This document shows, piece by piece, positions 37,225-40,042 of a stretch of DNA of 50,069 bases. Each line of letters opens with the position of its first letter. The first letter of the stretch is position 1. A program made the translations under genes and the position numbers. This stretch comes from Minisyncoccia bacterium (GTDB lineage Bacteria; Patescibacteriota; Minisyncoccia; UBA6257), in NCBI GenBank assembly GCA_049969555.1, contig JBMFOQ010000002.1, positions 1-50,069 on the forward strand, read 5' to 3'. Below the pieces are notes generated by a model. The model was not told where the DNA came from. It did no database searches and saw nothing but the letters and a program-made list of their open reading frames with translations.

Positions 37225-37515
37225 TTATCTTTCAAATCTTCTATGGAATCTTCTCGGAGGTCTTTCTTTCAAAGGTCTTGCTTCGGAAACAACAATTGTT
37301 CTTCCGTCTAATTCTTTGCCATTAAACATTTCAATAGCTTTTTGGGCTTCTTCTTCTGTTGACATATCAACAAAACCAAAACCCTTTGAACGGCCGGAGA
37401 ATTTGTCGGTAATAATCGTTGCCGAAGTCACTGTTCCTGCCCGAGAGAAAGTATCTTTTAGTCCCTCTTCAGTCGTGTCATAAGAAAGACTTCCAACGTA
37501 TAGTCGAGTATTCAT
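37225..37515 (-). CDS. RRM-domain RNA-binding protein
   Basis: RNP2 LYVGSL and RNP1 KGFGFVDM; Arg-rich tail. Confidence 0.93.
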   Translation of the reverse strand: MNTRLYVGSLSYDTTEEGLKDTFSRAGTVTSATIITDKFSGRSKGFGFVDMSTEEEAQKAIEMFNGKELDGRTIVVSEARPLKERPPRRFHRRFER

Positions 37516-38292: not shown

Positions 38293-38511
38293 TTATTTGG
38301 TAGTTTTTTTAACCTCTTTATTTAGTTCTTTTAAAAGTTTTTTCATATCTATATTGTAAGCCTTGCAAACTTCTTTAATAGTTAAATGCTGAATTTCAAA
38401 AATAGCAAAAGGGCAGCTAAGGCAAGGAACATTATATTTTGCGAGGACTTTTAGATAATGCTTGTTATTAAAAAGTTCTCCCAGGGCTGTTTTTTCTGTA
38501 ATTTTTTTCAT
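38293..38511 (-). CDS. DUF1858-like small CxxC protein
   Basis: PCLSCP...TIKEVC motif; own promoter TTGACG-17-TAAAAT at 38565-38537. Confidence 0.7.
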   Translation of the reverse strand: MKKITEKTALGELFNNKHYLKVLAKYNVPCLSCPFAIFEIQHLTIKEVCKAYNIDMKKLLKELNKEVKKTTK

Positions 38512-38569
38512 AAAAATTATTTGTTATTTTATTCAAATTTTATCAGTTAATTTTAAAAACGTCAAAAAT

Positions 38570-38737
38570 AAAAAATGCTGCGCTTTTTCCACCTTGCGGT
38601 TTCAAAAGCGCAGCGTGGTGGTTCTTAGTCGGCTTTTCAGCGTTCTAAGGACCACCATGCTGTCTCTTAGTTACCTTGCGGCTCATAAGGGACAGCGTGC
38701 TACTGCTTAGTTGCCTTTCGGCTTCTAAGCAGCAGCA
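38570..38737 (-). ncRNA. Putative novel structured ncRNA of four tandem GNRA-capped hairpins
   Basis: Hairpins at 38698-38737, 38659-38696, 38615-38658 and 38577-38614; TTGATT-16-TATAAT promoter (38770-38743); 3' U6 tail. Confidence 0.75.
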
Positions 38738-38777
38738 ATTTAATTATAAGCCAAATTTTTTTTAAATCAAGAGTTTA

Positions 38778-38893: not shown

Positions 38894-40042
38894 TTATTTT
38901 AAAGTCAATGCGTGACGACTGAATTTTATCGCGAAACGATGGGCTTCTTCCCGGCTCTTTAAAAGGGTTTCTTTTTGTTCTTCTATTAAATTTTTAATAG
39001 CCTTTTTTGTTTTTTTAGGAAAAACAAGTTTATCATTTTGATATTTGGAAATTCCCACTAAAGGAATATTGATTTTTGCTTCTTGAAAAAAATTGGCTAA
39101 ATAGTCAATTTGCGGTTTTCCGCCGTCAATGACAATTAAATCAGGCAGCCTCCATTCAGAATGTTTTATTCTTCTTAAAATAACTTCTTTTAAAGCCTCC
39201 AAGTCATTTCTTGGTTGCGCTTCTTTAATTTTAAATAGCCGGTAATTTTCCGGTGATTTTTCGCCATTTATAAAAACAACCATCGAGCCATATGTTCCTT
39301 TTCCTTTGAAATACGAAATATCATAACCTTCTATCCGATAAAATTTGTTTTCCATTAAAAATTCATCTTTAGAAATTAAGGCAACATCTTGAATATGTTT
39401 TAAAGCCTGAATTTTTTCTGGATTTTCTTTTAAAAGTTTTTTAAAAAGAGTTTTCTTTTCTCCTTTAAGAAAAAGAATTAAATTATCAATGTTTTTTTGA
39501 TAATCTTCTTTTGAAATTTTTCCAAGACAGGCGCCGGGACACAAACCAATTTGGTAATCAAAACAAGGTTTAAGAGAGTTTATTTTGCAAGTGCTATAGG
39601 GAAAAATCCTTCTTAAAATCCTTAAAGCAGCGGTTATTAAAGATAAACTTTTGTAAGGGCCAAAAACCTCTGCTTTTTCTGGAGGAAATTTATTAAGTTC
39701 GCGACCGCGGATAATTATTGGGTGAGTAAATTCTTTTTTCGGAATGGCTATATAAACAAACGAACGGTTATCCCTTTCTCTAATATTGTATTTTGGCCAA
39801 TATTTTTTAATTAAATTCGCTTCTAAAATAATTGCCTCTAATAAATTATTGGTAGTAATAAATTCTATTTTTTGAGCCAAATCAACCATCTCTTTAATTC
39901 GCGGATTTAATCCTTTTGAAAAATAATTTTTTATTCTATTTTTTAAATTTACCGCCCGCCCGACATATAAAACTCCGCCTTTTTTATTTTTAAAAAGGTA
40001 TACCCCTGGCTTTTGTGGAATATTTTGGGGGATTTTTTTCAT
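38894..40042 (-). CDS. uvrC: Excinuclease ABC subunit C (short form)
   Basis: GIY-YIG domain (PGVYLF...LYVGRA), Cys cluster, RNase H-like IEGYDIS, PDLIVIDGG and EAHRFA; no C-terminal HhH seen. Confidence 0.88.
   Translation of the reverse strand: MKKIPQNIPQKPGVYLFKNKKGGVLYVGRAVNLKNRIKNYFSKGLNPRIKEMVDLAQKIEFITTNNLLEAIILEANLIKKYWPKYNIRERDNRSFVYIAIPKKEFTHPIIIRGRELNKFPPEKAEVFGPYKSLSLITAALRILRRIFPYSTCKINSLKPCFDYQIGLCPGACLGKISKEDYQKNIDNLILFLKGEKKTLFKKLLKENPEKIQALKHIQDVALISKDEFLMENKFYRIEGYDISYFKGKGTYGSMVVFINGEKSPENYRLFKIKEAQPRNDLEALKEVILRRIKHSEWRLPDLIVIDGGKPQIDYLANFFQEAKINIPLVGISKYQNDKLVFPKKTKKAIKNLIEEQKETLLKSREEAHRFAIKFSRHALTLK

Follow-up and report, generated by a model that had tools for sequence, protein, structure and literature searches.

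What kind of element is the compact, hairpin-rich block that lies between uvrC and a small open reading frame on the minus strand of this DNA, and does it act as RNA at all? The window (the whole stretch of DNA that was analysed, 50,069 nucleotides) had been given a sequence-only reading, in which the block was taken for a stand-alone noncoding RNA made up of four stacked hairpins with GNRA tetraloops, possibly a multivalent protein-binding RNA or a precursor cut into unit hairpins. Here we surveyed the structure of the array, its relatives in other genomes, its promoter and upstream region, its gene neighbourhood and its likeness to known RNAs. We conclude with high confidence that the region is a real stand-alone structured small RNA gene, and we discuss, in more tentative terms, what its product may do.

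The minus strand of positions 38570-38770 was found letter for letter as it had been quoted, and the stack of four GNRA-capped hairpins was confirmed both by reading this strand and by the minimum-free-energy and centroid structures of RNAfold (Table 1). Each unit occupies about 40 nt (38-42 nt) and is composed of an 11-13-bp basal stem, an A-rich, more generally purine-rich, internal loop of 2-3 nt per side and a 3-bp stem capped by GAAA or GCAA. The units are joined by linkers of 1 nt each and are 74% alike. A run of six U residues (38575-38570), preceded by A, follows directly 3' of unit 4, which thus doubles as the intrinsic terminator of the predicted array transcript; a simple terminator scan of the window returned zero sites and missed unit 4 because its pattern disallows an internal loop. 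The predicted transcript is about 168 nt long and consists of four contiguous hairpins and nothing else. The block had also been described as GC-rich, and it has about 50% GC in a genome (525,708 bp in 50 contigs) that has 30.9% GC.

Table 1. Coordinates of the array and of the adjoining features in the window
Feature	Position	Strand	Details
Two perfect tandem DnaA-box nonamers, TTATCCACA	38797-38789 and 38786-38778	minus	end 7 nt upstream of the -35 element
Sigma-70-type promoter, TTGATT-16-TATAAT	38743..38770	minus	10/12 consensus matches; start site inferred
Hairpin unit 1	38698..38737	minus	13-bp stem, AA/AA internal loop, GCC-GAAA-GGC apex
Hairpin unit 2	38659..38696	minus	stem with one C.A mismatch, GCC-GCAA-GGU apex
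Hairpin unit 3	38616..38657	minus	GGUG-type stem with one C.A mismatch, AAC/CGA loop, GCU-GAAA-AGC apex
Hairpin unit 4	38577-38614, A-U6 to 38570	minus	GCUGC-type stem, ACC-GCAA-GGU apex
Promoter-like site of the DUF1858-like ORF, TTGACG-17-TAAAAT (with TG)	38537..38565	minus	consensus scan
DUF1858-like ORF	38293..38511	minus	72 aa; PF08984 at 23.4 bits, below the 32.2-bit cut-off

The folding energy of the minus strand is far outside that of shuffled sequences (-88.0 kcal/mol, z = -11.7, with 0 of 200 shuffles as good), and that of the plus strand is comparable (-89.5, z = -11.05). Folding of the array alone cannot choose the strand, because the plus strand folds equally well, and the strand was therefore settled from relatives. 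The caveat that some basal-stem positions are C-A on the minus strand and G-U on the plus strand holds for one position each in units 2 and 3, while G-U pairs on the minus strand are found in unit 1 and in the apical stem of unit 2.

Copies of the array were tracked by BLAST, by a structural motif scan and by a covariance model, and all three tests gave a single locus in its own genome; the many dispersed copies that would have pointed to a REP/MITE-like DNA repeat were not seen. A BLAST search against 40 relatives located the array in both remaining genomes of the genus (77-78% identity) and gave shorter matches elsewhere in the family, in other genera. The related gene in those genera encodes two hairpins. 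Its promoter has the form CTTGACA-17-(TG)nTATAaT, and hairpin 1, GGUGUUAUUUG-AAA-GCC-GCAA-GGC-CGA-CAAAUAACACC, starts about 7 nt later. Hairpin 2 (GCUGC...GCAGC) comes 1-2 nt after hairpin 1 and is followed by AUUUUUU, and the ending GCAGCAUUUUUU is invariant across the six genomes aligned. The predicted RNA is about 88-90 nt long and is composed of the two hairpins only.

A covariance model of this two-hairpin RNA (R1) was built from six genomes and used to search the family. Matches at E<=0.01 were obtained in 21 of the 27 family genomes, and 12 of these were strong, with more than 60 bits (G000, G001, G002, G006, G007, G008, G010, G011, G012, G022, G024 and G042); the other six genomes gave no match with the model. 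The number of loci per genome ranges from one to four, values which are minima since several copies sit at contig ends; G024 has four genes, and G001 carries a five-hairpin array as well as a separate two-hairpin gene. The weaker matches include one-hairpin forms in genus g2 and part of g13, which have the same promoter, a single terminator-like hairpin capped by CUUG and U6, and a 124-nt relative in G007:C44 and G009:C11. One further match, of 27 bits (G004:C56), looks like unrelated terminators and was set aside.

Outside the family, none of 143 other genomes of the order matched the covariance model at E<=1e-4 and none of 150 other genomes of the class matched a broader model at E<=1e-3; both searches used stricter Infernal filters on sampled genomes, and their results are to be read as not found in those searched. 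Phage and plasmid records gave no blastn match to the array and viral contigs no match to its pattern, and a phage or plasmid origin of the hairpin RNA was rejected on these grounds. Among the genomes searched, the predicted RNA is restricted to one family of ultra-small CPR bacteria within Paceibacterota/Parcubacteria.

The number of hairpins varies within the array genus itself. Four are present in the window and in L058, L060 and L065; in G001, L061 and L063 a duplicated unit 3 brings the number to five, and L064 has six; the arrays of G002, L059 and L062 are cut off at contig ends. R1 gave 89.5 bits with units 3 and 4 of the window, which correspond in the alignment to hairpins 1 and 2 of the two-hairpin RNA, and 52.7-66.5 bits with units 1 and 2. 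Counted across the family, a predicted transcript holds 1, 2, 4, 5 or 6 hairpins, and close strains differ by one unit. The array is, on these alignments, an expanded form of a small RNA of about 90 nt with two hairpins.

Support for the fold was taken from the way its pairs change. In a MAFFT alignment of six genomes analysed by RNAalifold, 30 pairs were predicted and 10 of them carry compensatory changes. In an alignment of 19 distinct rows, which was fitted to the covariance model and so leans towards it, 96.9% of cells are paired as against 87.1% in shuffles, both sides change in 13 of the 30 pairs (4 at most when the partners are slid), and none of 500 shuffles attains these values on any measure; these shuffle statistics overstate the support for the fold, since related sequences are not independent. 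The covariation signal is large despite the lean of the alignment and the kinship of its rows. The same behaviour is seen inside the array, where the differences between unit 1 and the orthologous units of G001, of a G002-like contig and of L058 are compensatory. The check proposed earlier, a covariance-model search and a test for covariation, thus gave both homologues and covarying stems.

The relatives also give the strand. On the minus-type strand there are 36 G-U pairs and 11 A-C cells, the latter being those that would form G-U on the opposite strand. The loops of 37 distinct hairpins (one of which is a misfolded merge of three L064 units) are 28 GCAA, 5 GAAA, 2 CUUG, 1 UUUU and 1 AUAA, so that 33 of 37 are of the GNRA type, and this strand also bears the promoter and the U-run at every locus. 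Because the G-U bias, the GNRA loops, the U-run and the promoter all agree, the RNA strand is taken to be the minus strand of the window. The loops that depart from GNRA belong to hairpin 2 in genus g13 (CUUG) and in G008 (AUAA) and to unit 3 of L058 (UUUU), and the apical module is not strictly required in every hairpin. Linkers between hairpins are 0-2 nt long, and the predicted fold leaves no single-stranded seed.

These observations bear on the simplest alternative, that the block is a DNA palindrome of the REP/BIME or MITE type without any RNA function. An intergenic series of imperfect palindromes, each about 40 bp long and placed in tandem, would look much like this, and several of the copies in relatives do sit at contig ends. 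Against it stand the single locus in its own genome, the promoter and U-run on the same strand at every copy, the covarying pairs, the excess of G-U over A-C and the lack of any match in the phages, plasmids and viral contigs searched. The array does not behave like such a repeat, and we consider this explanation very improbable.

The promoter noted ahead of the array and the U6 at its end were both present as described. Promoter-like sites close to consensus are not enriched in the AT-rich window (3 found, 2.6 expected). In the related loci the corresponding site reads TTGACA-17-TAtAaT, mostly with an extended TG, and stands at a conserved distance from hairpin 1; a near-consensus promoter of its own was identified at every locus of the hairpin RNA.

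The genes that flank the array all lie on the minus strand, in the order uvrA, a short uvrC with GIY-YIG and RNase H domains, the array, the DUF1858-like ORF, pcm, a gene for an RRM protein and ychF. The DUF1858-like ORF is also downstream of the array in G001, and ORFs with similar N-termini, as read from the sequence, follow it in L058, L060, L061, L063 and L065. This ORF had been credited with a promoter of its own, in agreement with the separate promoter-like site that was found ahead of it. It is here regarded as a syntenic neighbour in the array genus and is not counted as part of the element. INDEPENDENCE from neighbours is seen in the gene upstream of the array, which is uvrC in the window and MacB/FtsX in G001 and in metagenome contigs of the genus.

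No neighbour conserved across the family loci was found. Those that recur are hsp20 at three loci (two by Pfam, the third from its translation), uvrC at two and pcm at two, and fpg, mgsA/rarA and radC were seen once each; the recurring neighbours lend the loci an apparent flavour of stress and repair. At the 14 two-hairpin loci the downstream gene is co-directional in 8 and convergent in 6, and a leader role is excluded at the latter six because the downstream gene is convergent.

A cis-acting element, whether a 5' leader or attenuator of the DUF1858-like or pcm genes or a 3' terminator or stabiliser of the gene upstream, has to be weighed at this point. It would account for the DUF1858-like ORF that is always downstream in the array genus, for the ORF of L058 that begins about 20 nt past the U-run, for the pcm gene of G011 that begins 62 nt downstream, and for the eight co-directional loci. 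It would not account for the six convergent loci, for the near-consensus promoter at every locus and the separate promoter-like site of the ORF in the window, or for neighbouring genes that differ widely between loci. We judge a cis element unlikely. The view of the array as a minus-strand RNA gene standing alone, and not a mere leader, has held up, with homologues that have their own promoters in differing gene contexts. The loci combine a predicted promoter, no open reading frame, a hairpin with U6 and varied contexts, as is expected of independent small RNA genes with intrinsic termination.

Upstream of the -35 element lie the two DnaA boxes listed in Table 1, a pair that was absent from the sequence-only reading. 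A DnaA box with at most one mismatch was found upstream in 16 of 28 family loci, in 13 of them perfect, against a background of 0.031 per 85 nt; the 28 loci take in the one-hairpin and 124-nt forms, and the background was counted elsewhere in the same loci. The start of the box is 41-50 nt ahead of the first hairpin, and 6-8 nt separate its end from the -35 downstream. A second box is present 11 nt further upstream in five loci, the box is inverted in two, and 12 of the 28 loci are without one. A dnaA gene was identified in the genome by a match to the C-terminal domain (domain IV) of DnaA.

The array genome has 11 perfect DnaA boxes, and 5 of them are close upstream of a TTGA -35 element, with a spacing of 7-8 nt in four and of 18 nt in the fifth, which is the outer box of the pair in the window. 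The boxes at C3:40620 and C4:8816 are each followed by a very short predicted hairpin transcript, and the box at C3:28335 by a hairpin leader ahead of a gene. As a separate observation, a cluster of five boxes beside a tRNA gene (C6:22505-22750) resembles a replication origin. At the level of sequence the locus has what a DnaA-regulated promoter would be expected to have, namely consensus boxes at a conserved promoter position in a genome that encodes DnaA, and DnaA bound beside the -35 may tune the synthesis of the hairpin RNA and link its level to the status of replication.

The same layout admits a reading at the level of DNA, in which a DnaA box, a strong promoter and a terminator form a cassette for DnaA titration, supercoiling or insulation, and the hairpins are nothing more than terminators. 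The minimal forms in genus g2 and part of g13, which come down to a promoter and one terminator-like hairpin, fit such a cassette, as do the fixed offset of the box in 16 of 28 loci and the recurrence of the box-promoter layout ahead of other very short hairpin transcripts in the array genome. The hairpins themselves speak otherwise: hairpin 1, which is no terminator, is the best-conserved part and covaries, and the number of hairpins other than the terminator has risen to 3-5 per transcript. Moreover, the G-U pairs are biased to the RNA strand, which indicates selection at the RNA level, and 12 of the 28 loci lack the box altogether. We therefore hold the cassette to be improbable as an explanation and continue with the hairpins as an RNA product.

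The next question was whether this RNA belongs to a known class. None had been recognised before, and no Rfam 15 family reached its gathering score anywhere in the window, nor at any of six related loci; the best hit by E-value was mir-276 on the opposite strand, at 26.8 bits against a cut-off of 62. No comparable small RNA of Patescibacteria (CPR) was found in full-text literature searches, and no mention of one was found in a recent preprint on prokaryotic noncoding space.

Several candidates were tried and rejected. SRP RNA was considered because RF00169 had no match in the genome at E<=1, and was rejected because the conserved SRP loops are absent from the hairpins and neither the Ffh M domain (PF02978) nor the SRP54 GTPase was found in the array genome. 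A small peptide was considered for an 11-codon ATG...TAA frame in hairpin 1 of several relatives; the start codon is TTG, GTG, ATA or CTG elsewhere, and the stem changes across the frame are compensatory. A base-pairing small RNA of the Hfq or ProQ type was rejected on the linkers of 0-2 nt, the lack of a seed and the lack of either chaperone gene, as Hfq (PF17209) and ProQ (PF04352) had no match in the array genome.

Among small RNAs that act by repetition, the family of CsrB, RsmY and RsmZ carries repeated short GGA stem-loops and varies in the number of modules and genes. The hairpin RNA is like them in being a stand-alone, non-coding RNA of repeated hairpins with a variable number of modules and paralogues and an intrinsic terminator. 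It is unlike them in its module, which is a long paired hairpin with an internal loop and a GCAA or GAAA tetraloop where theirs is a short GGA stem-loop. The label CsrB-style cannot be kept in its strict sense, as no loop contains GGA and CsrA (PF02599) had no match in the array genome in a search whose controls matched. The sibling small RNAs known as csRNAs, Qrr and LhrC are multi-copy RNAs of about 90 nt with two stem-loops and single-stranded seeds. The streptococcal csRNAs, Qrr and LhrC share with the hairpin RNA the copy number, the size, the two stem-loops and strong promoters with a transcription-factor site just upstream, and differ from it in that they expose seeds which it does not have.

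A local likeness was found in the ribosome. The 16S rRNA of the same genome (C8:3933) contains GCC-GCAA-GGC with A-rich flanking strands, which we take to be the apex of helix 27, the '900 tetraloop' hairpin. This 10-nt apex is the same as that of hairpin 1 in most genera; the match is limited to it, and the flanks differ. The resemblance may be mimicry, or it may reflect just the stability of a GC-rich 3-bp stem with a GNRA loop.

Type III antitoxins of the ToxI kind consist of a promoter, near-identical tandem repeats of about 36-40 nt and a terminator, with toxN downstream. The array has the promoter, tandem units and terminator in common with ToxI, whereas the repeats of ToxI are near-identical and followed by toxN, and the array units are 74% alike with orthologous units that differ by compensatory changes. 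An antitoxin was rejected on the dissimilar repeats and the non-toxin neighbours; ToxN (PF13958) had no match in the array genome in a search whose positive control was also silent.

TIGR arrays are reported as stem-loop arrays of phages and of parasitic and CPR bacteria which are followed by a terminator and processed unit by unit; the loop of each unit has in it two spacers of 8-12 nt that box C/D motifs flank, and an adjacent Tas gene has a Nop domain (PMC12045711). Tandem stem-loops, palindromic stems that differ between units and a terminator after them are shared with the array (PMC12045711). The hairpin RNA is unlike them in having loops of 4 nt, internal loops of 1-4 nt per side and stems conserved between genera. 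A TIGR-Tas array was rejected, as the Nop domain (PF01798) had no match in the array genome, no Tas was found, the tetraloops hold no spacers, and the neighbours are uvrC and the DUF1858-like ORF. On the comparisons made, the hairpin RNA is a previously undescribed modular small RNA of repeated hairpins, with a module that differs from those of the known sponges.

The comparison with these systems leads to the other use foreseen for the array, as a precursor that is cut at its 1-nt linkers into hairpins of about 40 nt acting singly as guides, antitoxins or effector ligands, in a maturation that would resemble that of ToxI or of tigRNA and crRNA. The regular units of 38-42 nt with linkers of 0-2 nt, the change in unit number between close strains and an RNase III-like gene in the genome are all in keeping with it, and unit-by-unit processing is reported for the TIGR arrays of CPR bacteria and phages (PMC12045711). 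However, neither Nop nor Tas was found and ToxN gave no match (its control being silent), and the loops are tetraloops without spacers. The stems do not look like variable guides, because they are conserved across six or more genera, and the commonest form of the RNA has two hairpins only. A precursor of single hairpins is in our view a rather unlikely account, and the intact hairpin RNA is followed below.

For this RNA the following mechanism is proposed. The sigma-70 promoter, with the two DnaA boxes ahead of it, would drive a minus-strand transcript of about 168 nt, in which the functional unit would be the hairpin itself, with its stem, its purine-rich or A-rich internal loop and its 3-bp stem with GCAA or GAAA. 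The number of units is varied both by tandem duplication within one transcript (4, 5 or 6) and by duplication of the whole gene (1-4 loci). The RNA should be unusually stable, because it consists of helix throughout, the 5' end being base-paired and the 3' end being the terminator. The lack of a single-stranded seed and the placement of both ends within helices lead us to infer a role as a multivalent ligand of proteins: long-lived, it would titrate or scaffold a protein with a specificity for the hairpin or for double-stranded RNA. Evolution alters the number of units both within the transcript and through gene copies, as would be expected of an RNA acting by valency or dosage. The statement as a whole, that of a highly stable RNA which binds protein multivalently and is controlled in a DnaA-linked way, is put forward tentatively, with chances that we would place a little under even. 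Of the sponge-like role first suggested, the multivalent part is supported indirectly by the numbers of hairpins and of genes, and the part that made it CsrB-style in the strict sense has fallen away.

Candidate partners encoded in the array genome are an RNase III-like protein (G000:C23:1962-2156), the single dsRBD protein of the genome, and the RRM protein (37225-37515 in the window). RNase III classically binds hairpins that run to about two helical turns and have an internal loop. The nearby RRM protein, once named as a possible partner, is syntenic in two genera, and of 16 genomes from other families, all without the hairpin RNA, 8 also have it; its distribution is thus not restricted together with that of the RNA, which speaks against a specific partnership and neither demonstrates nor excludes binding. 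A more specific version of the model is a decoy coupled to replication, in which a hairpin RNA with a level set by DnaA and an apex copied from helix 27 would titrate a factor of ribosome biogenesis or of double-stranded RNA processing. We think this version improbable as it stands. In it, the single RNase III-like dsRBD protein would be the obvious candidate target.

The finding may be of value in several ways. The hairpin RNA forms a clean RNA family, supported by covariation, that evolves in an unusual way and is confined to one bacterial family. Its module is present 1, 2, 4, 5 or 6 times in a transcript, and a genome has 1-4 of the genes, which suggests that hairpin copy number is important. 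The RNA is short, predicted to be very stable and easily synthesised, and hence amenable to pull-downs and in vitro assays. The usual partners of small RNAs, Hfq, ProQ and CsrA, are apparently missing from the array genome, and the recurrent DnaA box at a fixed promoter position offers a testable link between replication and a noncoding RNA in organisms with genomes of about 0.5 Mb. If the decoy were true, CPR bacteria without Hfq, ProQ and CsrA would gain a global post-transcriptional switch, and the strength of that switch would evolve by the gain or loss of hairpins.

The promoter layout of the array, the minus-strand gene for the four-hairpin sRNA in the window, was found at three further sites of the same genome (G000), which have a perfect TTATCCACA, a spacing of 7-8 nt and the pattern TTGAC(A/T)-17-TA(A/T)A(A/T)T. 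As read from the sequence, two of the three promoters lead to very short hairpin transcripts having U-run ends, and the remaining one leads to a GUAA-capped hairpin leader 5' of a gene. Perfect DnaA boxes stand upstream of a -35 in 5 of 11 cases in G000, the tandem pair of the window included. Five DnaA boxes (TTATCCACA twice, TTATCCCCA, TTATCCACT and TTATTCACA) were also clustered in about 250 bp adjoining a tRNA gene, and this arrangement marks a candidate replication origin, which lies on a different contig from dnaA. The locations of all these features are listed in the table.

Locations of features in G000 and in related genomes (L, locus; C, contig)
Feature	Location	Strand	Remark
DnaA-box promoter	G000:C3:40620	+	perfect TTATCCACA with -35/-10
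DnaA-box promoter	G000:C3:28335	-	perfect TTATCCACA with -35/-10
DnaA-box promoter	G000:C4:8816	+	perfect TTATCCACA with -35/-10
Five-box cluster	G000:C6:22505-22750		candidate origin
dnaA	G000:C14:7559-7765
uvrC-like ORF	window 38894-40042	-	382 aa, short
Doubled ~30-nt motif	L004:1790-1870 (G001:C1)		directly downstream of array
Single gene flanked by two sRNA gene copies	L020:1-951 (G007:C15)
Single gene flanked by two sRNA gene copies	L009 (G012:C22)
Single gene flanked by two sRNA gene copies	L022:72-932 (G042:C49)
124-nt two-domain RNA	L041:1501-1624 (G007:C44)	-
124-nt two-domain RNA	L026:1501-1624 (G009:C11)	+

In L004 the five-hairpin array of G001 is separated from the DUF1858-like gene by two copies of a ~30-nt motif (GTCATTCTGAGC..AGCGAAGAATCTCTCG), the second of which merges into a small TCTCGC-GAAT-GCGAGA hairpin; besides L004, the doubled motif follows the array in L060, L061, L063 and L065. 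GIY-YIG and UvrC RNase H were the only domains detected by Pfam in the uvrC-like ORF. Where two sRNA gene copies flank a single gene, this gene is hsp20 in G042 and an unannotated ORF of 151-169 aa in G007 and G012, conserved between both genomes.

Components of SRP were also searched. RF00169 was absent from G000, and none of the 41 genomes searched within the order gave a match above the cut-off; the sole match reached 21.3 bits (E = 0.021). Neither the Ffh M domain (PF02978) nor, in six-frame motif scans, Ffh/FtsY-type G3/G4 motifs were found in G000. The SRP54-type GTPase domain (PF00448) was detected in none of 41 genomes from the order; across the phylum, 1 of 121 genomes had a weak match, and all 14 control genomes were positive. 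These results reflect either a genuine absence of SRP/FtsY across the phylum or a blind spot of the searches.

Minimal versions of the sRNA gene were found in genus g2 and part of g13 (L030, L031, L032, L034, L027, L028 and L033), in which the conserved sRNA promoter is followed by a lone GCUGUC...GAAG-CUUG-CUUC...GGCAGC hairpin and U6, often with a further CTTGACA promoter no more than ~30-40 nt on. The 124-nt two-domain RNA of L041 and L026 has a DnaA-box promoter and a U-run as in the hairpin sRNA genes, three G-U pairs in its first stem and an internal GAC-GCAA-GUC hairpin. It had no match in Rfam and matched the covariance model of the two-hairpin RNA weakly, at 37 bits, and is either a divergent relative or a member of a second sRNA family.
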